NCBI GenBank assembly: GCA_021825655.1
Contig: JAKAGU010000003.1
Span: 12,014 to 76,013, forward strand
DNA: 64,000 nt
Reading direction: 5' to 3'
Source: a bacterium
GTDB taxonomy: Bacteria; Patescibacteriota; Doudnabacteria; UBA920
Positions within the stretch are counted from its first letter, which is position 1. Every line of letters starts with the position of its first letter. Of the stretch, positions 1-50,116 are shown piece after piece. The notes under the pieces are model-generated. The model searched no databases and was not told the DNA's origin. It was given only the letters and a program-made list of their open reading frames with translations. A program made the position numbers and the translations under genes.

Positions 1-2792
1 AAAAAAAACTGGCCAAGCCGGAAGAAATTTTAGCCCTGACGTTTACGGAAAAGGCAGCGGGCGAAATGCAGGAAAGAGCCGATTTGCTTTTGCCATTGGG
101 CCACTACGACATGTGGATTTCAACTTTCCACAGTTTTTGCGAGCGCCTGTTAAAACTCCATGCGCTGGATATCGGCCTGCCCAACGATTTTAAACTGCTG
201 GACGAAACTGCGGCATGGATTCTGGTTTACAGGAATTTCGAGCGCTTTCAGCTGGATTATTACCGCCCTTTAGGCAACCCGGCCAAATTTATCGGGGCTT
301 TGCTGACTCATTTTTCCAAGTGCAAGGATGAAATGATTTCACCGGAAGAGTACCTGGCCCACACTCAGGATTTAAGACTGCAGCAGGACCAGCCAAAACA
401 AACCCAAAAGAAAAAGCAGGAGGAAACAGGCGTCGATGAAACCGAAATTTCCCGCATTGAAGAAATCGCCAACGCCTACCACGCCTACGAACAGCTGCTG
501 CTGGAAAACAACTTCCTGGATTTTGGGGACCTGATTAACTACTGCCTGCAGCTTTTGCAAAAGCGCCCGAAAATTTTGGACTACTACCGCAATAAGTTCA
601 AATTCCTCATGGTGGACGAATTCCAGGACACCAACTATGCCCAATACCAGCTTGTCAGGCTGCTGGCCGGTGGAAAACAAAATTTGGCCGTAGTTGGGGA
701 TGACGACCAGTCCATTTACAAATTTCGCGGAGCCAGCGTTTCCAATATCCTCAAATTTAAAAAAGACTATCCCAAACTTAAACAAATTACCCTGGTTGAA
801 AATTACCGCAGCAGCCAGAACATTCTGGATTTAGCCTACACATTCATCCAAGCCAACAATCCTGACCGTCTGGAGGTCAATTTAGGCATTAACAAGCGCC
901 TCCAGGCCAAAGGCCCGGCAGGCGAGGGCGTTATCCAGGTAGTGGAAGGTGCGGACCTAAGCGGCGAACTGAATGCGGTGGCCAAAAAAATCCTGGAAAG
1001 AAAAATTAGCCGCAACCTGTCGTGGAACGACATTGCGGTGCTCATCCGCTCCAACTCCGCGGCGGATGCCTTGCTGCCTGTTCTGGCCAGCCACGCTATC
1101 CCGTTTACCTTTGTCGCAAACAAAGGCCTATATAAAAAACCTATTGTGCTGGATATTTTGTCCTACCTAAAATTTCTTGACAATGCCAATGATTCAAGCT
1201 CCCTCTACCGGGTTCTTTCTCTGCCCAAGTTCCACTTAAGCCACCCGGAACTTTCTGACTTACTGCTCCGGTCCAAGAAAAAAACCGAAAGCTTTTATGA
1301 AAGCCTGGCGCAGGCTGCGCTTATGCCCGAAATTTCTTCTGAATCCAAAAAACGCATTGGCGAGCTGCTTGACTTGTCCAAAAAGCACCACGCCATGCTT
1401 AAAACCCATTCGGCTGCGGAATTGCTGGTTGATGTCATAAAAGACCTCGGCTTTGAAGAAAAGCTCAGGGAAGACACCCTGGAAAACGCCCAAAGCCGCG
1501 AACTGCTGGAACAATTTTACAAAAAAATAGAAGATTTTCAGGAAAAAGAAAACGACCACTCTTTGCATAACTTCCTTTCCCTGCTTGAACTGGAACAGGA
1601 GGCCGGAGACGAAGGGGTTGTTCCGTTTGATCCCAACCAGGGACCGGAGAGCGTGAAGGTTCTGACAATCCATGCGGCCAAGGGCTTGGAATTTGAAACG
1701 GTCTTTCTTATCAACCTGGTTGACCAGCGCTTCCCCACACGCGAAAAAGGCGACCCCATAGAAATCCCCGGCGCACTGGTTAAGGACATTCTGCCCGAGG
1801 GTGAGTTCCACTTACAGGAAGAACGCCGCTTGTTTTACGTCGGCCTGACCCGGGCCAAGACCGAGCTTTACCTAACTTGGGCCAAAGACTATGGCGGTCA
1901 GCGCGCCAAAAAACCTTCTCAATTTTTGGTGGAAACCGGGCTGGTGCCAAGCGAAAAAGTCAGCAAAGCTACCGGCAAGGTCGTGTTTACGAAAAACGAA
2001 AAACTGCCCGTGGTTTACCGGCGCCTGCCGGAGCAATTCTCCTATTCCCAGCTCAACGATTTTGAAGCCTGCCCGCTGAAATACAAATACCAGCACTACT
2101 TAAAACTCCCGGTACCCGGCAGCCAGTACCTGAGTTTCGGGCAAACAATACACAAAGTTCTGGAAGAGTACCTCAAACTCTATAAGGCTTCGCTGGAAAT
2201 CAAGCAGATGGACTTGTTCGGCAAAGGAAAAGACGGCCCTATCCAACTGCCTGAATTCCCGGTGCTAGAAAAATTTTACGAGAAATTCTGGATTGATGAC
2301 TGGTACGGTAGCAAACAGCAAAAGCAGCGCTATAAGGCTGAAGGGCATAAAATCCTCAAAACTTTTTTCGAAGAAGCCGCTAAGCAGCCATTCTCGCCAA
2401 AATACATCGAACAGTTTTTCAAGCTTAAGCTTGGCAAATACGATTTTGTTGGCAAGATTGACCGTGCTGACCAGGCGGGAGAGGGTGTTTTAATCCTGGA
2501 CTACAAAACAGGCAAGGTTCCCAAGAGCAAAAAAGACCTGGACCAGCTGTATATTTACCAGTGGGCGGCGCAGGAATTTCTGCAAGAAAAAGTGGTAGGG
2601 CTAAAATACTGGTATTTGCAGGAAAATGCTTTTGTGGAAGAAGAGCTCGCCTTGCCAGAGGAAATCGAGGAGCTAAAGGCCCGGTTATTGGCATTGATAG
2701 AAAAAATCGTGTATGTTACGCGCCACGACCTTTTTAAACAGGAACACCAAAAGCTGAGGGACCACAATTGCCAATTTGAATCTTTGGAGTAA
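1..2792 (+). CDS. UvrD/PcrA-family helicase fused to a C-terminal RecB-type PD-(D/E)XK nuclease domain (AddA-like); 5' end lies outside the window
   Basis: Frame 3 translates from nt 3 as KKLAKPEEILALTFTEKAAGEM (UvrD motif Ia region). Later motifs: DEFQDTN, VGDDDQSIYKFRGA, ENYRSS, LTIHAAKGLEF, FYVGLTRAK. The C-terminus has nuclease motifs SYSQLNDFEACPLKY, LILDYKTGK, QLYIYQ. Confidence 0.8.
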   Translation, partial: KKLAKPEEILALTFTEKAAGEMQERADLLLPLGHYDMWISTFHSFCERLLKLHALDIGLPNDFKLLDETAAWILVYRNFERFQLDYYRPLGNPAKFIGALLTHFSKCKDEMISPEEYLAHTQDLRLQQDQPKQTQKKKQEETGVDETEISRIEEIANAYHAYEQLLLENNFLDFGDLINYCLQLLQKRPKILDYYRNKFKFLMVDEFQDTNYAQYQLVRLLAGGKQNLAVVGDDDQSIYKFRGASVSNILKFKKDYPKLKQITLVENYRSSQNILDLAYTFIQANNPDRLEVNLGINKRLQAKGPAGEGVIQVVEGADLSGELNAVAKKILERKISRNLSWNDIAVLIRSNSAADALLPVLASHAIPFTFVANKGLYKKPIVLDILSYLKFLDNANDSSSLYRVLSLPKFHLSHPELSDLLLRSKKKTESFYESLAQAALMPEISSESKKRIGELLDLSKKHHAMLKTHSAAELLVDVIKDLGFEEKLREDTLENAQSRELLEQFYKKIEDFQEKENDHSLHNFLSLLELEQEAGDEGVVPFDPNQGPESVKVLTIHAAKGLEFETVFLINLVDQRFPTREKGDPIEIPGALVKDILPEGEFHLQEERRLFYVGLTRAKTELYLTWAKDYGGQRAKKPSQFLVETGLVPSEKVSKATGKVVFTKNEKLPVVYRRLPEQFSYSQLNDFEACPLKYKYQHYLKLPVPGSQYLSFGQTIHKVLEEYLKLYKASLEIKQMDLFGKGKDGPIQLPEFPVLEKFYEKFWIDDWYGSKQQKQRYKAEGHKILKTFFEEAAKQPFSPKYIEQFFKLKLGKYDFVGKIDRADQAGEGVLILDYKTGKVPKSKKDLDQLYIYQWAAQEFLQEKVVGLKYWYLQENAFVEEELALPEEIEELKARLLALIEKIVYVTRHDLFKQEHQKLRDHNCQFESLE

Positions 2793-2816
2793 TATCAAAA
2801 TTGTGTTATAATTTAA

Positions 2817-3191
2817 ATGTTTCAAAATAACAAACAACAAATTTACGCCATTGCCGGCGCCACTCTGCTTTCCGCTTTTTCGCTGGGCGCAGTGCTAATG
2901 TTTACGGATCCCGGCCAGGCTTCAGCAAGCACTTTTGGCTTTTTTTACCTTAGTGTTTTCCTTTTTGCTTTTGGCACCTTCACTTTGCTGGGCTTAAGCC
3001 TGAGGCGCTGGCTTGCTCCGAAAATGTTTGTCTTAAATTTCTATACCAGCCTGAGGCAGGCGCTGCTGGTCGCCCTCTTGCTGGTTGCAAGCCTCCTGCT
3101 ATTAGGCCAACGGCTGCTCTTCTGGTGGGTTGAATTAAGCCTTGTTCTCCTTTTGCTCTGCATTGAATTTTTCCTTAGCCTCAAATCCTAA
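2817..3191 (+). CDS. small hydrophobic membrane protein (3 predicted TM segments), hypothetical
   Basis: 124 aa ORF, strongly hydrophobic, immediately downstream of the helicase and 26 nt upstream of the next gene. Confidence 0.35.
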   Translation: MFQNNKQQIYAIAGATLLSAFSLGAVLMFTDPGQASASTFGFFYLSVFLFAFGTFTLLGLSLRRWLAPKMFVLNFYTSLRQALLVALLLVASLLLLGQRLLFWWVELSLVLLLLCIEFFLSLKS

Positions 3192-3217
3192 CTTAGCCTA
3201 TCAACAAAAAACAAAAT

Positions 3218-4759
3218 ATGGACCCAGAAAAAAATCCACCCCAAACCCAGGAAGACGTGCTGCGGGCGGCGAGCGCAACCCCCGCTGCCAAAAACCTGCA
3301 CGAAGATGAACCGCAGGTTTATAATGTCATGCCGCGGCTATTACACAAAAACAACGTATCCCAGCCCGTCATGGAAGTGGTGGACAACTCTCCAAACTCC
3401 ATCGACGGCCTGCAGTCGGCCTCGCCGGCCGGGGGCGTAAATTTTATAAAAATCCTGAAAATAGCCATACTAACAGTGGCTGTTCTCGGTCTCGGCTATG
3501 CCGGCTACCGTTTCGGGCCCAAATACTACAAACAATTTTTTCTGGCCAGCAAGACTGCGGCTCCGGCTCCGGCCCAGACTGCCGACCAATCCACCCAAAG
3601 CACTCAGGACCAAGTTCAGGCCACCTCTTCCCCTGACCAAAACGCAAACAATTCTGCCTTGCCCTCGGATTGGCTCAAAAAATATTTTGGGGTGGATGTT
3701 TGCGATAAGCCCACGGAATGCGGGCCCGACGCCGATCCGGACCTGGACGGCCTTACCAATCTTGAAGAATATCAGCAGGGGACCGACCCAAACAACGCAG
3801 ACTCCGATGGCGACGGCCTGTCCGATGGCGACGAAGTCCATGTATTTTTGTCAAATCCTTTAAAAAAATACTCGAACAACGATCCCAAATACACGGATGC
3901 GGACTATTTTAAGGGCGGCTATGATTTAACCACAACCCAACTAATGACACCTGATCGGCTTCTGGAAATTAAAACCCGGATGTCGGACAAAGGCTTGCAT
4001 CCGCCTACAATCGCCACTTTAGGGGACGCTCTGCAAAAAATTTATAACTTCGGCAGCCCCCTGGACACTTCGGGCCAGCAGGCCTCAAGCACCCCCAGTT
4101 CCACCCCTGACCAGGCTTTGGACGGTTTTGAAGTGACACCCGCAGCCCAGCAGGATCGCGACGCCCAGCGCACCACCACCATAAAAAATATCGGCATCGG
4201 TTTGATTAAATACTACGATAACAACAAAAGCTACCCCAACACCACTGACTTTAAGGAAATGTACGACGCAATCCGAGTCTTCATGAAAGTGGCCACCAAT
4301 CCGCAAGACCCGGTTAATAAGGCTCCCTACGTTTACACTTATGCGCCAAGTGCGGCCGGAGACGATTTTACACTGGCCTATTACAGCGAGGTTGTCCGGC
4401 AGACAATAAAAAAACACGCGGCAGACGCACAAAAAGACAAAGCCACCGAAGAGGCTGCTATTTACGACGACCAAAGGATCAACGACTTAAAGCGCCTCCA
4501 AACCGCGCTTTTGCTTTACTCTTCCAAACAGGCAGCCGGCAACCAGGATAATGTTTTTCCTTCGGCGGAAAAATACAAGACCGAACTCTTGGTCAGCGGC
4601 GACATTACCGACATACCCACAGATCCCAAAACACACAACGACTACGAATATAAGGTAAACGACACCTTTAACACTTTCACCTTAAAAGCCGTACTCGACA
4701 ATCCGCCAACGGGCTCCACCGGCTACCTGTGCAACCAGCTCAACTGCGATTATTACTAA
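3218..4759 (+). CDS. membrane-anchored surface protein with thrombospondin-type-3-like Ca-binding repeats and two tandem pseudopilin (GspG/PulG)-like domains
   Basis: Single TM segment (FIKILKIAILTVAVLGLGYAG) after a roughly 70 aa N-terminal region, then an STQ-rich linker. DADPDLDGLTNLEEYQQGTDPNNADSDGDGLSDGDE matches DxDxDG repeats. Two repeats follow: RDAQRTTTIKNIGIGLIKYYDNNKSYP ... DPVNKAPYVYTY ... FTLAYY, and RINDLKRLQTALLLYSS ... TDPKTHNDYEYK ... FTLKAV. The protein ends in a Cys pair, CNQLNC. Confidence 0.5.
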   Translation: MDPEKNPPQTQEDVLRAASATPAAKNLHEDEPQVYNVMPRLLHKNNVSQPVMEVVDNSPNSIDGLQSASPAGGVNFIKILKIAILTVAVLGLGYAGYRFGPKYYKQFFLASKTAAPAPAQTADQSTQSTQDQVQATSSPDQNANNSALPSDWLKKYFGVDVCDKPTECGPDADPDLDGLTNLEEYQQGTDPNNADSDGDGLSDGDEVHVFLSNPLKKYSNNDPKYTDADYFKGGYDLTTTQLMTPDRLLEIKTRMSDKGLHPPTIATLGDALQKIYNFGSPLDTSGQQASSTPSSTPDQALDGFEVTPAAQQDRDAQRTTTIKNIGIGLIKYYDNNKSYPNTTDFKEMYDAIRVFMKVATNPQDPVNKAPYVYTYAPSAAGDDFTLAYYSEVVRQTIKKHAADAQKDKATEEAAIYDDQRINDLKRLQTALLLYSSKQAAGNQDNVFPSAEKYKTELLVSGDITDIPTDPKTHNDYEYKVNDTFNTFTLKAVLDNPPTGSTGYLCNQLNCDYY

Positions 4760-4769
4760 TTCTAAGCAA

Positions 4770-5198
4770 ATGACCTTCAACCTTTCCTGGCTAAGGAGGC
4801 TTTTTAAGCCGTCCGCAGCAGCTCAAACAGATTATTCCAACATTATTTGCGCCCGCGTGGTGCAGGCGGACAAACACCCGAACGCTGATCGGCTGCGCGT
4901 GGTAACCGTCGATATCGGCAGCCAAACTATTGCTCCGGTGGTTTGCGGGGCTTTCAATTTTGGACCCGGCGACTTTGTGGTTCTGGCCTTGCCGGGCGCG
5001 AAAATTGCCCAAAACATCCATTCCCAAACCCACGAGCCGTTTATACTGCAAAAAGCCAAAATTCGCGGCATCGAGAGCCAAGGCATGATTTGCGCCGGTT
5101 TTGAACTCGGTTTATCCCAAACACCCGAACCGGGCATACTTCTACTTGGCAAAAACGTGAAGCCGGGTAGCCAATTTTCACCTGAAATGATAAAATAA
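4770..5198 (+). CDS. stand-alone tRNA-binding OB-fold domain protein corresponding to the N-terminus (B1/B2) of PheT
   Basis: MTFNLSWLRRLF ... VQADKHPNADRLRVVTVDIG ... VVCGAFN ... AKIRGIESQGMICAGFELGL aligns with residues 1-150 of bacterial PheT. The ORF then terminates. Confidence 0.7.
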   Translation: MTFNLSWLRRLFKPSAAAQTDYSNIICARVVQADKHPNADRLRVVTVDIGSQTIAPVVCGAFNFGPGDFVVLALPGAKIAQNIHSQTHEPFILQKAKIRGIESQGMICAGFELGLSQTPEPGILLLGKNVKPGSQFSPEMIK

Positions 5199-5228
5199 CG
5201 CCATTAAAGACTAAATTCGGGCTAACAT

Positions 5229-6368
5229 ATGAGTAATATTGTCATTGATACCACGGAAGAAAAGCGCCTTAAACAGGAGCTGGAAAAAAGGACTGATTTT
5301 GAGGCGCAGAGAATTAGGCGATACCTGAGCATGCCGGATCTTTCAAGAACGCCGGGCAGCCCCATTGCGGAAATTGTCAAAAGAATACTTGCCAGCGCCT
5401 ATTTTAAAGACCTGGACACTATCCAAACACCGGAGATTGTCCCGGCAGACATTAGTTTCGATTTATTTGATTTTCCCGCTGATCATCCGGCAAGGAGCAA
5501 ATCCGATACCTACTACGTGGACGACAGTAATATTTTGCGCACCCACACTACCATTATGTGGTATTACTATCTGAAGGATGAGGGCGTCAAAGCACGGATT
5601 GCGGAAAATAAGCCTGTGGGCTGTTTCAGTTTTGGCAAAGTTTACCGCAAGGACGAAATCGACCGCAAGCACATGAACGTCTTCCACCAAATCGACGGCT
5701 GGTACCTGGCCCCCAAGTCGCAAAAAACCATTACCCAGACCGATCTGGAAGAAGCTTTGGGTAACATTGCCAAAGCCGTATTCGGTGAAAATGCCAAATA
5801 CCGCCTCAACAAAGACACTTTCCCGTACACAGACCCGTCCCTGGAGATGGAAGTCGACATAAACGGCAGCTGGGTTGAAGTCGTGGGCTGCGGCGTAGTC
5901 AAAGGCAGTGTCCTGGACAAACTGGGTATTGATTCCAAAAACTACACCGGCTGGGCCTTTGGCTTCGGCTTGGAACGTTTGGCAATCACCAGCATGGAGC
6001 TGCCCGACATCCGCCTGTTGTGGTCAAATGACGAGCGCGTAAAAAAACAGCTGAACCTTGGGCAAAAATTTGTTGAAGTAAGCAAATACCCGCCCATTAC
6101 CCGCGACATTTCTTTTGTTGTCAGCAGCGATTTTGTCCCCAATAACTACTTTGACCTGATCCGTGAAATTGGCGGTGACCTGGTAGAACAGGTGGAGCTG
6201 CTGGACAAGTATGAAAACAAAGAAAAATTCGGCGAGGGCAGGACCAGCTACACTTATCGCGTAATCTACAGGAGCCCTGACCGAACGCTTAAAACCGAGG
6301 AAGTGGAGCCTCTGCAGGCCCGGCTTTACGAAGAAACCAAAAAGCAATACAACGCGGAGTTAAGATAA
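5229..6368 (+). CDS. pheS: phenylalanine--tRNA ligase alpha-type catalytic subunit fused to a C-terminal FDX-ACB anticodon-binding domain (mitochondrial-type architecture)
   Basis: Class II PheS motifs FDFPADHPARSKSDTYYV, ILRTHTT, GKVYRKDEIDRKHMNVFHQIDGW, GWAFGFGLERLA. The C-terminal 90 aa (KYPPITRDISFVVSSDF ... VELLDKYEN ... SYTYRVIYRSPDRTLKTEEV) is FDX-ACB-like. Confidence 0.85.
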   Translation: MSNIVIDTTEEKRLKQELEKRTDFEAQRIRRYLSMPDLSRTPGSPIAEIVKRILASAYFKDLDTIQTPEIVPADISFDLFDFPADHPARSKSDTYYVDDSNILRTHTTIMWYYYLKDEGVKARIAENKPVGCFSFGKVYRKDEIDRKHMNVFHQIDGWYLAPKSQKTITQTDLEEALGNIAKAVFGENAKYRLNKDTFPYTDPSLEMEVDINGSWVEVVGCGVVKGSVLDKLGIDSKNYTGWAFGFGLERLAITSMELPDIRLLWSNDERVKKQLNLGQKFVEVSKYPPITRDISFVVSSDFVPNNYFDLIREIGGDLVEQVELLDKYENKEKFGEGRTSYTYRVIYRSPDRTLKTEEVEPLQARLYEETKKQYNAELR

Positions 6369-6527
6369 TAAAAACTCTTTTAAATAAGCCTTAAATTTGA
6401 CTTATTTTTAGCGTTACACTCCTGGAATTTTATACTAAATTGTGTTAAAATTAAGGCAGGAATCGGCAAGCGGCCCAGGAGTCTGGATTAAGACAAAAAC
6501 GCCCCGGAATTCCTGTTTTATTTTTAG

Positions 6528-8597
<2,070 letters not shown>

Positions 8598-13152: not shown

Positions 13153-14124
13153 ATGTTTGAATCCGGACGAAAAAAAATTAAGTACCGCAACCTGCATTTC
13201 AAACGGGAGCTGGAAAAAGCCCGGCAGTATAAGCGTCCGGCCCGCCAGCTGCCGGAAACCAAGACCGCCGTTTTCTTGGAAAAAATCGGCCTGGGCAGCA
13301 GGCTGTCCAAATTCTTCACGCTGCTGGCTTTTTGCCTGCTCGTTTACCTGGTTTTCATTCCCAACTTTTTATTTATCAAGTCCGTACAGATTACCGGGGA
13401 CAGCCTGGTGCACAAACAGCAGCATGAAGATATTGTGGCTTCGTTCTTAAATTCCAGCAGGGCTTGGCCGCAAAAAAACCTGCTGCTTTTGAGCAGCGGC
13501 AAATTAAAACAGGACCTGGCCAAAGACCCCTGGGTTATTTCCGTAGATTCGGTAGAAAAAGTCTGGCCCAACCGGCTGGCTATCCGGCTAACCGAGCGGC
13601 GCGAATTCGCCTTAGTGGAAACCAAAGATGCCAAGATGGTTTTTTCCAACGACGGGCGCTATTTGAGCACACTTACCGGCAGCACCACGCCGGACAACAC
13701 CCTGGTCGTACTCAAAACTTCGGAAGACCTTAGCCAAGATAAACCGCTGCCCTCGGCCAGCCTGGAGCTAATCAGAACCCTGCAGCAAAAAATCCCCGAA
13801 ATTTGTCATTCCACAGTTTCCGCTTACGATATTTACCCTTCAACCAACCCTGACGTGGAAGCCGAAACTGCGGCAGGCTATAAACTTATTTTTGACACCA
13901 GCAACGACAGCACAGAAGTCCTGGACAACCTCTCGGTCTTAATCGACAAGCTGTCACAGGACGAAAAAAACCGTCTTTTTTACATAGACTTAAGAATTAA
14001 AAACAAAGCTTACGTTTGTTTCAAGGGCACCAGCTGCACCACAGACACGGTGTTTCAAAACCCTTTTGTAACAGGGCAGAACGCAAGCACCAGCGCTTCA
14101 TCAACGCTCCCAACACCTCAATGA
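13153..14124 (+). CDS. ftsQ: cell division protein FtsQ/DivIB-like (TM anchor plus POTRA domain)
   Basis: N-terminal TM segment, then DPWVISVDSVEKVWPNRLAIRLTERREFALVE, matching the FtsQ POTRA signature (PW..S..V.R.WPN.L.I.V.ER.P.A). Confidence 0.6.
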   Translation: MFESGRKKIKYRNLHFKRELEKARQYKRPARQLPETKTAVFLEKIGLGSRLSKFFTLLAFCLLVYLVFIPNFLFIKSVQITGDSLVHKQQHEDIVASFLNSSRAWPQKNLLLLSSGKLKQDLAKDPWVISVDSVEKVWPNRLAIRLTERREFALVETKDAKMVFSNDGRYLSTLTGSTTPDNTLVVLKTSEDLSQDKPLPSASLELIRTLQQKIPEICHSTVSAYDIYPSTNPDVEAETAAGYKLIFDTSNDSTEVLDNLSVLIDKLSQDEKNRLFYIDLRIKNKAYVCFKGTSCTTDTVFQNPFVTGQNASTSASSTLPTPQ

Positions 14125-14851: not shown

Positions 14852-16450
14852 TTACTGCACCTTGTATTCAGTCACAACAATCCAAGTGCCCACATAGGGC
14901 CTAACCTCGGCAAAACCTTTTTCGTCCAGCTTGACCCAGTTCTTCGGCGTTTCGGGCTTGCTAGAACCGAATCCGTTTGTCCACAGCAGCCAGACCAGGT
15001 CGCCGCGCTTGACCTGGGTATTAAAGTCCGGCAGCAGGTCTTGGTTGGTCAAAATTGCCGTACCGGCAAAGTGCGGCAAGTCACTGACCTCACGGCTGCC
15101 GCCGGTGTAGAGCAGGGGCCTGACCGGCGTTTGGTTGTAATACTTAAAATTGAAAAATTCAAAGCTAGTACCCACATATAGCTTGTCTTCGGGCTGTACG
15201 TTGGCATCCAAAAATTTGGCGGCCGCAGCCATTCCCGGCTTGGTCTGCACGCCCAAATCCTGCCAGTACACGTACACCCCAATAAGATTAAAGGTTACGC
15301 AGGCACCAAAAAGGAGATAGGCGATTTTTTTATACCGTAGCTGGCCAAGCCATGCAGCCAGAGCGATATTCAAAAATGCAGCGGTGAAAATAAAGTATCT
15401 GACCAAATATACGGACGAACTGCTGCCTTTCAGCCGGGCCAAAATGTAAAACAGGAAAGAGCCGCCGAACGGCGCCAAAATTGCCAGAATTACCAGCCAT
15501 TTTTCAAAAACTTGGGTTTTTCTGAGGAACCGGTACAGAAAATATAGGGCAAACACAAAAGTTACCGCCAGTAAAATCTGGGTTTTAAATTTTGCCGGAT
15601 CATGGCCGATGCCGAATAGCAAAGTCCAAAGCGTAGAGGGAATACTCCACCGGTCCACGGGAGGTATCCAGTATCCGGCATCCACCTGCCGGTACTGGAA
15701 CAAAAAAGTCTTGAGCCAGGGCAAAAAAGAAAGGGCGATCAGCAAAAAAGACAGCAACAGCCAGCTATATTTTTTAATGCTGCCCTCATGGTGGAAAAAC
15801 AAATAAACCAACCCGTAAAAGCAGATTGCAGTAGCCGTAAACAGCAGGTAATAGTGGGTATAAATTAGAACGACCGTACTTAAAACAAAACCCAAATAAT
15901 TCCAAAGCATGCTCCGCTTCAAAGCAATTTCCTGGGGCAGGCGGGGCATGGCCAATTTACTGGTTCCGTACAGGTCTTTTTGGCGGTGGAGAGCCTTGGT
16001 CAAAAAGTAAGCCGAGAGTACGGCAAAAAATGCGCCCATGGTATACATCCTGGCCTCTGTAACATATTGGACGGAAAAAGGATTGACAGCTGCCAAAAGC
16101 CCGGCCCACAGGGCCAGCTTTTCGCTCTTAAAGGCTTCCCGAACGAACAGCCATACTGCCCACACCGTAAGGACGCCGAAGAGGACTGACATGCCGCGCA
16201 AAGAAAGCAGCGAATCCCCGAAGACATAATGCCACAGGCGCAAAAAAACGTAATACATAGGCGGATGCACATCCAGGCCGATGCGGTACATCATTTCCTT
16301 CCATGGGTAGCGGATGAGCAGGGCGGAAAAAGCCTCGTCGTGCCAAAGCGAAATGGCCGTTAAATTCCAAAATCTTAATGCGGCGGCCAGCGCCAGAATT
16401 CCGGCAATAGGCCAATACCTTTTTATGTGCATAGAAAACTTATTTTTCAC
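14852..16450 (-). CDS. GT-C membrane glycosyltransferase (ArnT/PMT-like, polyprenyl-phosphate-sugar dependent)
   Basis: Multi-TM protein with a first-loop WHDEAFSALLIRYPW (DE motif), 532 aa. Confidence 0.7.
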   Translation of the reverse strand: MKNKFSMHIKRYWPIAGILALAAALRFWNLTAISLWHDEAFSALLIRYPWKEMMYRIGLDVHPPMYYVFLRLWHYVFGDSLLSLRGMSVLFGVLTVWAVWLFVREAFKSEKLALWAGLLAAVNPFSVQYVTEARMYTMGAFFAVLSAYFLTKALHRQKDLYGTSKLAMPRLPQEIALKRSMLWNYLGFVLSTVVLIYTHYYLLFTATAICFYGLVYLFFHHEGSIKKYSWLLLSFLLIALSFLPWLKTFLFQYRQVDAGYWIPPVDRWSIPSTLWTLLFGIGHDPAKFKTQILLAVTFVFALYFLYRFLRKTQVFEKWLVILAILAPFGGSFLFYILARLKGSSSSVYLVRYFIFTAAFLNIALAAWLGQLRYKKIAYLLFGACVTFNLIGVYVYWQDLGVQTKPGMAAAAKFLDANVQPEDKLYVGTSFEFFNFKYYNQTPVRPLLYTGGSREVSDLPHFAGTAILTNQDLLPDFNTQVKRGDLVWLLWTNGFGSSKPETPKNWVKLDEKGFAEVRPYVGTWIVVTEYKVQ

Positions 16451-16455
16451 TTTAA

Positions 16456-18273
16456 TTATTTAACTTCGTATACGGCCATGGCTGCCTGGCCGAACTGGTT
16501 GCGTACCTCCAGAACAAGTTTGGTTTCCGGATGGTATGCTTTAAATTTTTTAATGTCAAAAATCGAACTCTGGGTAAACACAATCTGGTCGCCGGCTTTC
16601 AGGCCTTTGAGCTCCCAGGAATTTTCAGGATCCACCTGCATATAAGGCACGCTGCATGGGCTGTCAAAGTTACCCTTAGGGTCGCTGGTAATATAATCCG
16701 TGGTCTGTACAGAAAATTTATCCAGTACCAAATAAGTGGAATCTTTTTTGCAGCGCTCCACCAGGTATTTACCCACGGGGCTCAGATCGGAACGGAAGGC
16801 ATAAAAATTTTCCGGGCTGTTTGCGGCATATACAAAATAAGCAAAATAGGCTTGCAAAACCAGAGCGGCAAAAAACAAGGCCACAACCGCCTTAAGCAGC
16901 CTGCTGTTAAACTGATAAAAGCGCTGCTGGCCGGAAACCGGCTTGTTCCAATCCCAGACCGAGCCTGATCCCAATTTTTTTTGCCATAATTTTTCCCTGA
17001 AACTCATAGCGCCTTCAGCAAACCACATCAGGCCCAACGCGGTTAAGATGAACACCGGGGGGATAACGCCAATACCCCTCAAGCCGTGCGGTATGCCTTC
17101 TGCCGTACTGACAACAGGTAGGAGTAAGCCAAAAAACCAGCCAATAAGCAAATAGTATGTCCAGTAACGGCTTCTTTTGGCCGGAGCAAAGAAATACGCT
17201 ATGGCAAAAAACAAAGCTGCCAGCAAAGCCACGGCAAAAAACGGGCTGATGAGGGGGGAAAGGAAGGGGTAGCCGGAAACATTCTGCCGCCAATTCAAGT
17301 CGCCCTGGAAGAAAAAGCCCAGCATCTGGGTTTTAAAAACCTCGCCCATCACGGAACCGACCACGGAAAGGGGAGGCTTGCTGGTCAACTGCACGCCGTT
17401 AACCGTATACAACTCCTGGTTAAAGATGCTCACCTGGCCGGCCCGGCCCAGAAAAGAGCCCGGGTGCTGGTAAAAATACTTGCCAATGGGGTAGAAAAAT
17501 ATCACGAAAGCCACCAGAAATGAAACAGCAGGCCAAAAATATGTTTTTACTTCAGCCTTAAGGATTTTTTGTTTCAGCGCACCCAAAAGCGGCCACAGCA
17601 GCACCATAAACAAAATCGGCGCCATAATCCTGAAAGCGATGTAAGTATAAAAACCTAAAGCAAAACTAGCTCCGGTCAAAAAGCTATACAACAATTTTTT
17701 CTTGTTGATGGCTGCGGTATAGGTACAAAGCAAAAAATAAAAGGTCAAAGAAGCAAACAGGGGGATAAGGATTGCGCGGAAAGCGGTCCGGGAAAGCACA
17801 ATATGCCAGGAATTTACAGCCATCAGGAAAGTGGCCAGCAGGGCAATGTTCACGGCCCGGCGCTTGCCGGATTCGTCTTCCGGATCCAAGGTAAAACTCA
17901 AAAGTTTTTTGGTCACCAAGAAACACATAAGCACGGACAAAAGACCCACCAGCGCCGACACCAAATGGTGTTGCCAAGCGCCCTTGCCAAACAGTTCAAC
18001 GCCGCCCCAAAGCATATAGAAGAAAAGCGCCTCGCGACCATTACCGCGCTCGTAAAAAGGCTGAAGCACGCCTTTTTGCATTAAGTTAACATCCAAACCA
18101 TTGGCGGCTTCATCGGGAAACAAGCCGCCGGGCATACCCGGCTGCAGGTTCTCTACCTTAAAGTCCTTAATTGAGCACTGGCTGCCGCAATCCCAATGAA
18201 AGAGCAGGTAAAACCTAAAAAAAGCAGCCAGGATTAAAATTATAGCCAGCAGATATTTTTGGTTTCGGGTCAT
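16456..18273 (-). CDS. GT-C membrane glycosyltransferase (ArnT/PMT-like), paralogue of the gene downstream
   Basis: LFPDEAANGLDVNLM (DE motif) and many TM segments. Only 5 nt separate it from the next gene. Confidence 0.7.
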   Translation of the reverse strand: MTRNQKYLLAIILILAAFFRFYLLFHWDCGSQCSIKDFKVENLQPGMPGGLFPDEAANGLDVNLMQKGVLQPFYERGNGREALFFYMLWGGVELFGKGAWQHHLVSALVGLLSVLMCFLVTKKLLSFTLDPEDESGKRRAVNIALLATFLMAVNSWHIVLSRTAFRAILIPLFASLTFYFLLCTYTAAINKKKLLYSFLTGASFALGFYTYIAFRIMAPILFMVLLWPLLGALKQKILKAEVKTYFWPAVSFLVAFVIFFYPIGKYFYQHPGSFLGRAGQVSIFNQELYTVNGVQLTSKPPLSVVGSVMGEVFKTQMLGFFFQGDLNWRQNVSGYPFLSPLISPFFAVALLAALFFAIAYFFAPAKRSRYWTYYLLIGWFFGLLLPVVSTAEGIPHGLRGIGVIPPVFILTALGLMWFAEGAMSFREKLWQKKLGSGSVWDWNKPVSGQQRFYQFNSRLLKAVVALFFAALVLQAYFAYFVYAANSPENFYAFRSDLSPVGKYLVERCKKDSTYLVLDKFSVQTTDYITSDPKGNFDSPCSVPYMQVDPENSWELKGLKAGDQIVFTQSSIFDIKKFKAYHPETKLVLEVRNQFGQAAMAVYEVK

Positions 18274-29375: not shown

Positions 29376-30023
29376 TTGCATAAACAATGTGTGTTGTTGT
29401 TAGTGGTACTGCTGGCGGCCAGCATGGCAGCGCAAGCGGGCACCATCACTTTCGGTTCCGATCTTACGGACGAGTACAACCTTCACAATCTCGTCTACGG
29501 GTCGAACCAGTTCATCATCCCGGATCCGGCGTGGGCACCGCAGCTGCCGCACGGCAGCTGGATCAGCTACGCCAATACGGGTGACGGCGCGGGCGCGATT
29601 TCGCCGCCCAACACGACCATCCCCGGACCGGCCACCGCAGTCTTTTTCGAAGTTCTGCCGGTCGGCACCTACCTGGCTTCCTTGAACATCTTCGCGGATG
29701 ACACCGCAGGGGTTTTCCTGGAAGACGCGAGCAATCCGTACGGTTTGCTGCTGAAAGCGCCGAACCCAGTACAAGACGGACACTGTGCAGCCGGGCAGAT
29801 TGGCTGCGAAGTGAACGAGAACTGGACAGGCAGCTTTGCGGTAGACCCCAGCGGTTCTTCCCGCTTGCGCATCGAAGCGTATCAGCGCGGGGGCGGGCCC
29901 TTCGGGGTCATGTACCAAGGCACGGCCTCGACCGTGCCGGAACCTGCCAGCTATCTGCTGCTCGGCAGCAGCCTCGTGATTCTCGGCGGCATCCGCAAGT
30001 GGCGGACGCGCAGCCAAAACTAA
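29376..30023 (+). CDS. secreted protein with N-terminal signal peptide and C-terminal PEP-CTERM sorting signal
   Basis: Signal peptide LLLVVLLAASMAAQA|GT. C-terminus VPEPASYLLLGSSLVILGGIRKWRTRSQN (VPEP + hydrophobic helix + basic tail). Coding GC is about 65-70% against a window average near 50%. Confidence 0.65.
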   Translation: MHKQCVLLLVVLLAASMAAQAGTITFGSDLTDEYNLHNLVYGSNQFIIPDPAWAPQLPHGSWISYANTGDGAGAISPPNTTIPGPATAVFFEVLPVGTYLASLNIFADDTAGVFLEDASNPYGLLLKAPNPVQDGHCAAGQIGCEVNENWTGSFAVDPSGSSRLRIEAYQRGGGPFGVMYQGTASTVPEPASYLLLGSSLVILGGIRKWRTRSQN

Positions 30024-47157: not shown

Positions 47158-48414
47158 TTAAGTGCCTTCCTGCCAGCTGGCCAGGTATTTTTTTTGCACG
47201 GGGGTGAGCGCGTCGATTTTCACGCCCAGCGCCTCCAGCTTCAGCCTGGAAACGCGTTCGTCGATTTCTTTGGGTACGTCGTAAACCATAGGCCGCAAGG
47301 TTTTATAATTTTTGGCCAGCCAAGCGGAAGTCAGGGCCTGGTCCGCAAAAGACATATCCATAACCGCGGACGGATGGCCTTCGGCCGCGGCCAAATTCAT
47401 AAGCCGGCCTTCGGCAATCAAGAATAATTTTTTGCCGCTGGGCAGAGTATATTCTTCCACCTGGTCCCTCACGGCCCGGTGGGACTTGGCCAATTTTTGC
47501 AAATCGCCCAAGTTGATTTCCACATTAAAATGACCGCTGTTGCCCAAAATCGCCCCGTCTTTCATTAGCTTCATGTGTGTTGCGGTAATTACGTCCTTAT
47601 CGCCTGTGGCGGTCAAAAATACGTCGCCGATTTTGGCTGCTTCCGCCATTTTCATTACCTCAAAACCGTCCATGGCCGCTTTCAGCGCTGGCAGGGGATC
47701 CACTTCCGTAACCACCACCCTGGCACCCAAGCCTTTTGCCCTGAGAGCCATGCCGCTGCCGCAATAGCCGTAACCGGCCACCACCACAATTTTGCCTGAG
47801 AGCAAAACATTGGTGGCGCGGAGTAGGCCGTCCATGGTGCTTTGGCCCGTACCGTAATAATTATCGAACATATGTTTGGTCGGGGTGTCGTTAACGGCCA
47901 CAATCGGATACTTCAGCGCCCCGTCCTTAGCCATGGCTTTCAGGCGGATAACTCCGGTAGTGGTCTCTTCCTGCCCGGCCACCACGCTCTTTAAGAGCTC
48001 CTTGCGCTCGCTGTGGATTAAGGAAATCAAGTCCGCGCCGTCATCAATAGTGATTTGCGGTTTAAAATCCAAAGTCTGGTTCAAACACTGATAATAATCT
48101 TTATTGGAAATGCCTTTCCAGGCAAACACGTTAATCCCGTCTTCCACCAGAGCCGCAGCCACGTCATCCTGGGTGGAAAGGGGATTACTGCAGCATAAAA
48201 CCACCTCAGCGCCGCCCGCGGCAATGGCCTTGGCCAGCACAGCGGTTTCCTTGGTTACATGCAAACAGGCTGCAATAGTCAAGTTTTTAAACGGCTGGTT
48301 CTTTTTAAACTCCTGGGCAATCTTCCGCATAACGGGCATCTCGCGCTCAGCCAAGGCAATGTTAATGTGGCCCTGCTTAGCCAGCTTCATGTCTTTAACT
48401 TTGTATTTGGGCAT
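47158..48414 (-). CDS. ahcY: adenosylhomocysteinase (S-adenosyl-L-homocysteine hydrolase)
   Basis: NAD-binding GKIVVVAGYGYCGSG, HFNVEI, 418 aa short type. Confidence 0.9.
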   Translation of the reverse strand: MPKYKVKDMKLAKQGHINIALAEREMPVMRKIAQEFKKNQPFKNLTIAACLHVTKETAVLAKAIAAGGAEVVLCCSNPLSTQDDVAAALVEDGINVFAWKGISNKDYYQCLNQTLDFKPQITIDDGADLISLIHSERKELLKSVVAGQEETTTGVIRLKAMAKDGALKYPIVAVNDTPTKHMFDNYYGTGQSTMDGLLRATNVLLSGKIVVVAGYGYCGSGMALRAKGLGARVVVTEVDPLPALKAAMDGFEVMKMAEAAKIGDVFLTATGDKDVITATHMKLMKDGAILGNSGHFNVEINLGDLQKLAKSHRAVRDQVEEYTLPSGKKLFLIAEGRLMNLAAAEGHPSAVMDMSFADQALTSAWLAKNYKTLRPMVYDVPKEIDERVSRLKLEALGVKIDALTPVQKKYLASWQEGT

Positions 48415-48536
48415 TTTTCTCTCTGGGATGAATTATTTACCCCAGAAGTATACCAGAAAAATCCTCTTTTTTGTAGAGTTTTAAGCACTGGATTTTTCCG
48501 GGCAATTATGTTAAAATAAAAAACGCTACCAGCCAC

Positions 48537-48612
48537 GCCGGCTTAGCTCATCTGGTAGAGCAACGGTTTTGTAAACCGTAGGTGGTCGGTTCAAGTCCGA
48601 CAGCCGGCTCCA
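48537..48612 (+). tRNA. tRNA-Thr (anticodon TGT), CCA encoded
   Basis: Acceptor gccggct/agccggc, anticodon stem acggt/accgt with loop ttTGTaa, T arm gtcgg-ttcaagt-ccgac. Confidence 0.85.
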
Positions 48613-48704
48613 TAGCCCACTTTTTATTGGATCATAAAAAGTGCAAAGATTTTCCGACGCCCGGTTAATCTTTAACCAATAAATTTTTAACCTTAAATAA
48701 TCCC

Positions 48705-48860
48705 ATGTCCCAAGACCACTTGATTAACCTGGAGTGCACGGTTTGCCACAACCTCAACTACCAGACCAAGAAGAACAAGAAGAACACCCAGAAGCGTTTG
48801 GAATTGCAGAAGTACTGCAAATTCTGCAAAAAGAAAACCCTGCACAAGGAAACCAAATAG
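48705..48860 (+). CDS. rpmG: 50S ribosomal protein L33 (missed by the ORF track, 51 aa)
   Basis: [51 protein letters not shown]: two CxxC pairs and the KNKKN...RLEL...K.C..C motif of bL33. Confidence 0.8.
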
Positions 48861-48867
48861 TCTTCCT

Positions 48868-48891
48868 GTCCGGCCTTTAGGGGCCGGTTTT
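48868..48891 (+). terminator. hairpin plus T-run after rpmG
   Basis: ccggcc tttagg ggccgg tttt. Confidence 0.45.
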
Positions 48892-48965
48892 GGGGGCGTC
48901 GTATAATGGTAGTACAGCGGTCTCCAAAACCGCTTGCGTGGGTTCGATTCCTACCGCCCCTGCCA
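48892..48965 (+). tRNA. tRNA-Trp (anticodon CCA), CCA encoded
   Basis: Acceptor gggggcg/cgcccct (one G-U pair), anticodon stem gcggt/accgc with loop ctCCAaa, T arm gtggg-ttcgatt-cctac. Confidence 0.8.
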
Positions 48966-49061
48966 AAGAAACTTCTCTTTATTTTGAGGAGTTTTTTTGT
49001 AGGGCAATTTACTATTGAACAAAAAGAACTTATACTTGAAGAGAGGTGAACGATAAAATTT

Positions 49062-49460
49062 ATGAAGCAAGAACAAAAAGATAGCTGGCTAAGAAGAATG
49101 GGAAAGAAATATCAAATTCCCGCACAAACCCTAAACAAAATGCTAAAAAGAGACAGGCTTTGTGTGTATTGTCATAAAATAATGGTTTTGCCTAAAAAAG
49201 GAGCAAAACAACGAGACTGGATTACAATTGAACACATGGCTGATAGAGCATCTGGGAATAACGATAAAACGATTGCTCTCTGTTGTGGGAGGTGCAATTC
49301 AAGTCGCAGGATGAGTTTTGAAAAATGGTTTAAGACTCCGTACTGTATCAATAGGGGAATAAATAAAAAAAGTGTTGCCGAACCAGTTAAAGCCTACCTC
49401 AAAATGATTGCGCGTCTGAATCCGAAAGATCTCAAAAAATACATCATCAAAAACTACTAA
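49062..49460 (+). CDS. HNH endonuclease (free-standing), in an AT-rich islet next to tRNA-Trp
   Basis: CVYCHK ... IEHM ... NND ... CCGRCNSS (CxxC-H-N-CxxC HNH signature). Gene GC is about 33-37%. Confidence 0.6.
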   Translation: MKQEQKDSWLRRMGKKYQIPAQTLNKMLKRDRLCVYCHKIMVLPKKGAKQRDWITIEHMADRASGNNDKTIALCCGRCNSSRRMSFEKWFKTPYCINRGINKKSVAEPVKAYLKMIARLNPKDLKKYIIKNY

Positions 49461-49472
49461 ATTCTTTCAACG

Positions 49473-49733
49473 ATGGACGACAAAAAAAGTATAAAGTGGA
49501 CATTCGCCAAAACTTATGCCGAAACAGCTCCGCATGAGTACATCCTCGAGGAGAACTACCCTGACTTTTTTGCTGAAATGAAAGAAAAAATTGACAAGAA
49601 AGGCAAGGGGGAGCCTTTTACCCTGTTTGGTCGGACTACGATTTACCGTTATTTTTATACAGATACACATAGATACTGGGTAATTGAAGATGTGTTAAAC
49701 AGGGATAACAGATATAACCTAAAAAAGGTTTAA
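49473..49733 (+). CDS. hypothetical small protein downstream of the HNH gene
   Basis: 86 aa, no recognisable motif. Confidence 0.3.
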   Translation: MDDKKSIKWTFAKTYAETAPHEYILEENYPDFFAEMKEKIDKKGKGEPFTLFGRTTIYRYFYTDTHRYWVIEDVLNRDNRYNLKKV

Positions 49734-49817
49734 AAATCAAAGCCAACCATATTACCAAATTACCAATTTTAGCGATTTCGGTTCTAACATCGTTCCATAG
49801 GGACTACCACGACTTTT

Positions 49818-49845
49818 TAACCACCCGCAAGGGTGGTTTTTTATT
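49818..49845 (+). terminator. intrinsic terminator closing the HNH islet
   Basis: ccaccc gcaa gggtgg plus T6. Confidence 0.6.
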
Positions 49846-49855
49846 TCTGAATGTA

Positions 49856-50116
49856 GTGCTATACTCAAACCGTATGAAAATCCAAGTCTTGGGCTCCGGC
49901 TGTCCCACCTGTAAAAAACTTTTTGAAATTACCAAACAGGCGGCTAAAGAATTAAATATTCCGGAAGAGGTTGAATACATTACCGACATTCAGCAAATTT
50001 TGGATATGGGCCTAATGTCCAGCCCTGTTCTGGCAGTTAACGGCAAACCGGCCTTAGTCGGTTTCATACCGAAGGTGGAAGAAATAAAAAAAGCTATTCA
50101 AAAAAACATTTCCTAA
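49856..50116 (+). CDS. small thioredoxin-fold redox-active disulfide protein (CPTC motif; Thioredoxin_3/TM0983-like)
   Basis: MKIQVLGSGCPTCKKL ... VLAVNGK, 86 aa. Confidence 0.6.
   Translation: MLYSNRMKIQVLGSGCPTCKKLFEITKQAAKELNIPEEVEYITDIQQILDMGLMSSPVLAVNGKPALVGFIPKVEEIKKAIQKNIS

Follow-up and report, generated by a model that had tools for sequence, protein, structure and literature searches.

The 64-kb window analysed here (contig JAKAGU010000003.1, positions 12,014 to 76,013, from a member of the Doudnabacteria) encodes a 513-residue protein, referred to below as the pilin-head protein, whose open reading frame (ORF) spans 3218..4759 on the forward strand; positions are those of the window unless a related locus is named. 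Structure prediction and profile comparisons show that the C-terminal part of this protein comprises two domains with the predicted fold of genuine type IV prepilin heads; judged from their sequence profiles, they are homologous to those heads. The heads stand at the end of a stalk with predicted calcium-binding repeats, and the chain lacks the determinants of pilus polymerisation. Taken as a whole, the data favour, with moderate confidence, a stalked, non-polymerising binding or display protein in which two pilin-derived heads would form a fixed tip, a function that we infer. Such fixed-display use of pilin modules, as opposed to their use in a pilus subunit, is undescribed.

The gene is genuine and strongly conserved, and belongs to ultra-small Patescibacteria that mostly carry the label Doudnabacteria. 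Searching 5.8 billion proteins by word index gave 311 matches, the best 120 of which are near full-length relatives at 40-96% identity; these derive from metagenome-assembled genomes of Patescibacteria, and their label is mostly Candidatus Doudnabacteria. An exhaustive hidden Markov model (HMM) search, in which a profile of residues 303-513 was run against 1.84 billion cluster representatives, detected 597 proteins at E<=1e-3, including ~62 clusters of the family itself (50% identity) at E<1e-30, each 450-570 residues long and matched at the C-terminus. Given hundreds of full-length homologs, a chance ORF is rejected. The gene is present in one copy per genome in 20/20 species-level genomes. 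In an alignment of 48 homologs (A1), Met1 aligns across all members, which indicates that the start codon is right. Existing database names are limited to 'hypothetical' and 'thrombospondin type 3 repeat-containing protein', and phmmer with the full protein gave no match. A literature search found no description of the family, nor of leaderless pilin-head proteins in the candidate phyla radiation (CPR); the PamA/B pili that a 2026 preprint presents as a 'novel pilus system in CPR' are unrelated, being of the Ig-fold, donor-strand-exchange type.

The predicted fold is the first line of evidence. AlphaFold2 modelling with A1 yields two confident blocks, residues 145-282 and 300-513, both with a predicted local distance difference test score (pLDDT) >90, and disorder at residues 1-73, 109-144 and 283-297. 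The C-terminal block consists of two helix-plus-three-strand units (H308-336/E374-400 and H401-438/E477-512), and the α/β-roll head, with α1-C on an antiparallel β-sheet, is present in both. When the whole model is compared to the PDB with Foldseek, the top matches are type IV pilins: 4D40 (probability 1.00, TM-score 0.57 on the target), Clostridioides difficile PilA1, TTHA1221 and PilX. Head 1 modelled alone retains high confidence (pLDDT 94.2, predicted template modelling score (pTM) 0.84) and matches C. difficile PilA1 6T8S (probability 0.98, TMq 0.58, root-mean-square deviation (rmsd) 2.7 Å), the Shewanella pilin 4D40 (probability 0.97) and the TTHA1221 pilin. Only type IV pilins exceed a probability of 0.5 in either search, and with head 1 alone all non-pilin matches fall below 0.2.

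Sequence comparisons point to the same relationship. The residue 303-513 profile finds, as its best non-family matches, proteins that look like prepilins: among those of <=200 residues, 33/43 carry the G↓FTLIE class-III leader. The matched part of these prepilins begins at residue ~31-45, directly after the hydrophobic α1-N segment, and each head starts at a polar (Q)DRDAQR or YDDQR corresponding to the ARDxKR found in real prepilins just after α1-N. These helix starts, RD.QR and DDQR, are invariant in A1. A prepilin from L005, a family-bearing genome, aligns by hhalign with head 2 from its ARDVKR onwards (E=4.6e-5) and more weakly with head 1 (E=0.007). Against PDB entries the signal is fainter: an end-to-end alignment of head 2 with GspG 3fu1 is weak (E=0.085), and the head-1 profile has no match among PDB sequences. 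At the level of Pfam, the pilin-family kinship anticipated by the preliminary description of this gene, which was made from the DNA letters, is visible among the relatives and not in the window protein itself. The latter has no match to PF08334 (T2SSG) at E<=1, and 19/48 homologs do match. The best score, 25.1 bits on head 1 of P0064, is the sole one seen above the gathering threshold of 21; seven further members scanned individually score below it. The match lies on head 1 in P0064, P0020, P0044 and P0093, and on head 2 in P0102.

The two heads are linked by profiles alone. BLASTP of head 1 against head 2 is not significant (E=0.85), whereas hhalign aligns them in register over 73 columns (E=5.4e-5), and the HMM of each head cross-matches the other, in register, in almost every member scanned. 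The preliminary description had taken the domains for two tandem copies. Their pilin fold is borne out for both by AlphaFold2 and Foldseek; recent tandem duplication is rejected, since BLASTP finds no relationship and each head is closer to a different prepilin lineage. Scored with the head HMMs, free prepilins split cleanly into head-1-like and head-2-like groups. The closest to head 1, P0180, scores 65.5 bits with the head-1 HMM vs 11.5 with the head-2 HMM and shares the ...YTLTYYSEV ending; its gene lies within a run of prepilin genes. The closest to head 2 are P0182 (58.3 bits with the head-2 HMM vs 19.6 with the head-1 HMM) and P0232, which ends ...GFECTQAGCNYY, the same C-x4-C-x-Y-Y ending as head 2. 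The neighbours of the P0232 gene are a pilC fragment on one side and, on the other, the prepilin peptidase gene (pilD), after which come minor pilins and a PilX_N protein; this head-2-like prepilin occupies the classical major-pilin slot, pilC-pilin-pilD. Because the free prepilins divide in this way, the pilin-head protein combines the heads of two extant pilin lineages.

The terminal cysteines belong to head 2 only. The C505-x4-C510 pair, for which a disulfide is putative, has a form identical to that of P0232 and was probably inherited from the head-2-like prepilin lineage. The pair, likened earlier to the pilin D-region, is invariant; with a span of only 4 residues its loop falls well short of classical D-regions, and 'D-region-like' is a loose description.

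The determinants of polymerisation are missing. No class-III motif (G/A-[FM]-T-L-x-E) was found in the protein or upstream of the ORF in a six-frame regular-expression search, none occurs at an ORF start in the whole window, and the same search, read with the Met1 alignment, reveals no alternative start with a class-III signal peptide. The sole transmembrane (TM) helix has no Glu at +5, no conserved Glu and no G↓F cleavage motif, and is unlike α1-N in sequence. It lies ~200 residues upstream of the heads, with two disordered linkers intervening. Because the leader, Glu5 and α1-N are absent and the heads are this far from the anchor, the sequence excludes that the pilus motor extracts and polymerises the protein in the canonical way. 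The absence of a prepilin peptidase site, together with the pilin fold of both units and the profile matches to G↓FTLIE prepilins, upholds the initial proposal of a membrane-anchored, non-polymerising protein with borrowed pilin modules.

The single TM helix, the two invariant Cys pairs and the Ca2+ repeats suggest a type II membrane protein with N-in/C-out topology. As first described, an N-terminal segment of about 70 residues precedes one TM helix: the tail covers residues 1-73, hydropathy detects one hydrophobic stretch only (residues ~71-98), and AlphaFold2 places a helix at 76-107. The tail is poorly conserved (mean pairwise identity 18-22%) outside a linear motif, which is its sole conserved element and forms a 53%-identity island (residues 31-42) within the ~20% tail. 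Within A1, P39 is invariant and N36 and M38 are each conserved in at least 90% of sequences. The motif is present in 45/48 members, ~40-45 residues ahead of the TM helix each time; in L025, P0097 and P0106 an S, T or D stands in place of its Asn. PilN binds a groove of PilM via a conserved N-terminal ΦNLLP motif in which the Asn is critical (10.1101/2022.09.21.508927). The sharing of a Φ-N-Φ-Φ-P pattern by PilN and a pilin-related protein is suggestive, and PilM binding may be considered a lead. No PilN domain (PF05137) was matched by Pfam in the pilin-head protein or its homologs, no pilM or pilO lies nearby in related loci, a scan of those loci for PilN-like ORFs found none, and the motif peptide has no match in the PDB.

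Between the anchor and the heads lies the stalk. It opens with the S/T/Q-rich linker of the preliminary description, residues 108-148, followed by the thrombospondin type 3 (TSP3) repeats that had likewise been recognised there. PF18884 (TSP3_bac) matches the window protein over two stretches (E=2.7e-7, 30.7 bits vs a gathering cut-off of 25) and also matches 43/48 homologs. The acidic, Gly and Asn positions of the two TSP3 loops (DxDxDGxxDxxE-type) are invariant in A1, as are C162 and C168, a second Cys pair beside C505/C510. The family profile matches the Ca-binding segment of Bap, 7c7u, at E=4e-4, and Foldseek superimposes the TSP3 segment on that segment with 47% identity and an rmsd of 0.9 Å. 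Matches to CglD and Amuc_1099 (NCBIfam NF033765 and NF042425) fall below cut-off, at 24.4 vs 400 bits and 25.1 vs 50 bits, and span the TSP3 repeats only. The pilin-head protein is thus a genuine carrier of both TSP3 repeats and pilin-type head domains. The helical subdomain that follows (predicted helices at 227-232, 245-258, 262-268 and 270-276) has no family or PDB match, and a search with its alignment, aimed at other distal modules, gave no matches. Mean pairwise identity is highest in the TSP3 module (62.5%), followed by head 2 (61%), head 1 (56%) and the helical subdomain (44%); the tail and linkers are at 17-24%, save for the motif island.

Leaderless heads are also found outside this family. 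Other large CPR proteins (P0178, P0179, P0185, P0188, P0192, P0194 and P0211) carry two or three, usually at the C-terminus, and the head repeats in these proteins and in P0184 each start SRDA[KR]R. In the lipoprotein P0184 the order is opposite to that of the window protein, with two heads ahead of C-terminal TSP3 repeats. A class-III motif is present in only 2/38 long matches of the head profile. As it recurs in many large CPR surface proteins, the leaderless pilin head appears to be a recurrent extracellular module of this group. The converse exchange is seen in L025 (Doudnabacteria RIFCSPHIGHO2_02_FULL_42_25). Its syntenic ortholog, at 6412..7479 of that locus, keeps the partner gene, the motif (as FSVMP), the TM helix, the Cys/TSP3 module and the helical subdomain; both heads are replaced by a different distal domain of ~120 residues with a faint PsbP-like match (PF18933, E=0.0056, below threshold).

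The genomic setting was compared across 25 related loci, over ±10 kb around the pilin-head gene. The conserved order is helicase, 124-residue membrane protein, (pheS), pilin-head gene, pheT or tRNA_bind, gyrB, greA, lysS, serS. None of PilB/C/D/M/N/O is encoded within this range in the 25 loci, nor in the 64-kb window, which has no other pilin-like ORF and whose genes encode an AddA-like helicase-nuclease, PheRS, GyrB, GreA, LysRS, SerRS, an FtsQ-like protein, DnaE, RodA/FtsW, YceG and others. The FtsQ-type POTRA protein (13153..14124, +; PF08478, E=7e-9) is encoded by the final gene of the same-strand housekeeping block that holds the pilin-head gene. Within ±10 kb of the related loci there are only two stray prepilins. 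These class-III prepilin genes (G↓FTLIE; L005, 2492..2968, and L015, 4074..4571) each lie on their own, with RmuC and NYN/PIN genes on either side, some kilobases upstream of the family gene and away from pilus machinery. A promoter and terminator scan of positions 1..7000 was no richer than shuffled sequence, so the operon structure is deduced from same-strand spacing of 10-30 nt only.

Directly upstream of the pilin-head gene is the gene for a small membrane protein. Its presence had been noted in the preliminary description, which counted three TM segments; there are four. The gene occupies this position in 25/25 loci, generally abutting or overlapping the pilin-head gene. Because the central loop between its four hydrophobic segments is K/R-rich, an N-in/C-in topology is predicted. 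The invariant residues are P32, S78, R80, Q81, W103, W104 and the membrane-embedded E117, and the protein has no relative in Pfam, NCBIfam or the PDB. Adjacency suggests that the two genes may form a functional pair.

If the pilin-head protein is a display protein, its action likely involves: insertion through Sec, after which the linkers would let the ectodomain span the envelope; stiffening of the stalk, which could be provided by Ca2+ binding and two disulfides; and presentation of the heads, which would serve as a distal binding tip for a conserved ligand. On the cytoplasmic side, the [FY][FY]NVMP[KR] motif would tie the protein to an intracellular partner, and the 4-TM protein may associate with its TM helix. 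Patescibacterial pilins have been reported to be poorly conserved (PMC11623550). Since these heads are far more conserved than usual CPR pilins, and the gene is single-copy within a housekeeping block, a rapidly evolving host receptor is a less likely ligand than a structure that is itself conserved (the envelope or pilus of the same cell, or a common glycan). Without α1-N, a role at the pilus tip is unlikely; an anchored binding protein and a machinery-associated anchor are both possible.

Several observations weigh against a display function. Adhesins are not typically so highly conserved or placed among housekeeping genes. The tip-swapped ortholog in L025 is a single case and could reflect lineage-specific degeneration, not modularity. 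The full-length AlphaFold2 model has a pTM of 0.46, which makes the inter-domain geometry uncertain. The predicted topology is read from the single TM helix and from extracytoplasmic hallmarks (Cys pairs and Ca2+ repeats), and the putative relationship to the 4-TM partner from gene adjacency.

One alternative, clearly less probable but still a real contender, is that the protein is an accessory of the type IV pilus machinery. The motif would dock PilM, much as the ΦNLLP of PilN does, and the heads would dock pilins or the pilus outside the membrane, acting as an alignment, anchoring, priming or guide element that is analogous in logic to the archaeal FlaF/FlaG stators. This would explain why the only conserved element of the tail fits the PilN Φ-N-x-x-P pattern, and is consistent with the homology of the heads to real pilins and with the major-pilin-like nature of one head. 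Pilin heads contact one another in fibres, which would suit such docking. Type IV pili with PilM/N/O are also near-universal in CPR (PMC6744442). However, the gene lies outside any pilus operon in all the loci compared and in the window. The motif is ~35 residues from the N-terminus and ~40 ahead of the TM helix, unlike that of PilN; its Asn is not retained in three sequences; and L025 carries another domain in place of the heads. An extension of this idea, which is improbable as it stands, would combine the protein with its 4-TM partner as a new class of CPR pilus accessory: a PilM-tethered extracellular docking station, held by the PilN-like ΦNΦΦP, in which fused minor-type and major-type heads mimic a pilin pair and could serve to prime, guide or anchor the fibre as it crosses the wall of a secretin-less cell. 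If this were true, leaderless pilin heads would be a general CPR module for recognising pili.

A second alternative, which we regard as doubtful, is an envelope organiser of the FtsN/MapZ type. The motif would bind a cytoskeletal or division protein, the ectodomain would bind the cell wall or S-layer, with the heads as wall-binding modules, and the protein would mark or space the envelope. FtsN and MapZ share a layout of short cytoplasmic motif, TM helix, Q/S/T-rich linker and C-terminal binding domain, which that of the pilin-head protein resembles. The gene is single-copy, strongly conserved and situated among helicase, PheRS, gyrB, greA, lysS and serS in all loci, and the same-strand block includes the FtsQ-type POTRA protein. 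Against this, family, PDB and Foldseek searches detected no sequence or fold similarity to FtsN, MapZ, SPOR or LysM domains, nothing connects the motif to FtsA or FtsZ, and housekeeping synteny may be historical, not functional. Least credible is a cryptic, unusually long prepilin, in effect a minor pilin with an oversized leader, processed and built into the pilus, for example at its tip: the heads are homologous to pilins and modular pilins with extra domains do occur, in Gram-positive bacteria and in Saccharibacteria (e.g. PilX1/PilX2; PMC11623550), but the proposal is rejected on sequence, as the class-III motif and Glu5 are missing, the TM helix differs from α1-N, long disordered linkers separate it from the heads, and real modular pilins have an N-terminal pilin module directly following α1-N.

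Table 1. Features of the pilin-head protein and its upstream partner (window positions)
Feature	Residues	Position	Strand	Basis and description
4-TM partner, polytopic membrane protein	124 residues	2817..3191	+	Four hydrophobic segments, predicted N-in/C-in (hydropathy, alignment)
Pilin-head display protein, whole ORF	1-513	3218..4759	+	513 residues
Predicted disordered cytoplasmic N-terminal tail	1-73	3218..3436	+	pLDDT <50
Linear motif [FY][FY]-N-[VI]-M-P-[KR]	34-40	3317..3337	+	Here VYNVMPR; conserved in A1
Single TM helix (signal-anchor)	~74-98	3437..3511	+	Hydropathy; AlphaFold2 helix 76-107, pLDDT ~90
S/T/Q/P/A-rich low-complexity linker 1	108-148	3539..3661	+	80% S/T/Q/P/A/N; pLDDT <50; mean identity 17%
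Cys-stapled, predicted calcium-binding module	149-212	3662..3853	+	PF18884; W152, C162, C168; TSP3 repeats DADPDLDGLTNLEE and TDPNNADSDGDGLSDGDE
Helical subdomain after TSP3	213-282	3854..4063	+	DPKYxDxDYxKGGYD ... GLHxPT..TLG; pLDDT 93-95; 44% mean identity
S/T-rich linker 2	283-305	4064..4132	+	65% S/T/Q/P/A/N; pLDDT <50 at 283-297
Pilin head 1	306-400	4133..4417	+	α1-C-like helix from QDRDAQR, second helix, 3-stranded sheet ending FTLAYYSEV
Pilin head 2	401-513	4418..4756	+	Long helix with YDDQR, sheet (DYEYK, FTLKAV), C-terminal Cys loop; pLDDT 90-97
Terminal Cys pair C505...C510 (CNQLNC)	505-510	4730..4747	+	Invariant in 48/48 sequences

Other features of the window and its related loci are recorded here in their own right. 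The PheRS of the window looks rearranged: a stand-alone 142-residue tRNA_bind protein (4770..5198) is followed by a 379-residue PheS catalytic core fused to FDX-ACB (5229..6368). This fusion is the architecture of monomeric mitochondrial PheRS, and no B3_4/B5 β-subunit is present in the block. Canonical pheS and a pheT of ~800 residues flank the pilin-head gene in L002 (8963..13969), L003 and L005 (8895..14396), and the 'monomeric' form is found in most other loci. A membrane glycosyltransferase of the PMT_2 family (protein O-mannosyltransferase/ArnT-like, E=4.5e-15) is encoded beside a 605-residue membrane protein without a Pfam match (14852..16450 and 16456..18273, both on the reverse strand). 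As pure speculation, S/T-rich linkers of the kind found in the pilin-head protein could be substrates for glycosylation by such an enzyme. A 215-residue secreted protein (29376..30023, +) ends in a PEP-CTERM-like motif (VPEPASY..., PF07589, E=0.003, below threshold), which is surprising for a Patescibacteria-type genome in which neither an outer membrane nor an exosortase is in view. At 48001..50000 the GC content dips to 0.41, vs ~0.49-0.50 elsewhere. Two small ORFs in the dip (49062..49460 and 49473..49733) have no Pfam matches and lie beside a thioredoxin-like gene and an ArsP-type permease; this region may be foreign DNA.

Type IV pilins are usually viewed only as polymerising subunits. 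Here, their head groups appear detached from the polymerisation helix and reused as fixed, tethered modules. The lifestyle of CPR bacteria is one of attachment to other cells, with pili at its centre, which makes the pilin-head protein a concrete candidate for envelope-pilus or cell-cell contact. For annotation, matches to PF08334 or to a 'pilin-like' fold in Patescibacteria do not alone indicate pilus subunits.

With type IV pilins and the G-type pseudopilins of type II secretion (PF08334 plus PF07963 N_methyl) the protein shares the head fold, and the short terminal Cys loop of head 2 may be a further likeness; with CPR prepilins in particular, the heads share the signatures ARDxxR...D...L..Y, ...P.DP...Y.Y... 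and FTL. Type IV pilins differ in having a leader, a prepilin-peptidase site, an N-methylatable Phe1, Glu5 and the hydrophobic α1-N, all absent here. The pilin-head protein instead joins two heads of different lineages in one chain, with an unrelated signal-anchor far upstream, and is not encoded alongside pilus machinery. The likeness to PilN is a Φ-N-Φ-Φ-P motif in the predicted cytoplasmic part that precedes the one TM helix; in PilN, ΦNLLP is at the extreme N-terminus, whereas here the motif reads NVMP, is internal and has an Asn that is not strictly invariant. Lacking defining features of both, the protein is predicted to work like neither a pilin nor PilN.

Conceptual counterparts are FlaF and FlaG (ArlF/ArlG), stator proteins of the archaellum that are membrane-anchored and non-polymerising, have a soluble domain resembling the filament subunit and stay in the envelope. 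No homology is implied: FlaF/FlaG have a β-sandwich, archaellin-like fold, occur in another domain of life and have their genes within the archaellum operon. The B domain of the biofilm protein Bap (7C7U/7C7R) resembles the stalk in its TSP3 segment, which aligns at 45-47% identity and an rmsd of 0.9-1.8 Å. The repeat unit alone is common to Bap, CglD and Amuc_1099, whereas the flanking Cys pair and the helical subdomain are specific to the pilin-head family. In modular type IV pilins (Streptococcus sanguinis PilB/PilC; Saccharibacteria PilX1/PilX2, PMC11623550), a pilin module is likewise combined with extra domains for surface interactions. There, a functional module is grafted on a complete, polymerisable pilin; the pilin-head protein appears to be the inverse, with bare pilin heads as the distal module on a non-pilin stalk.

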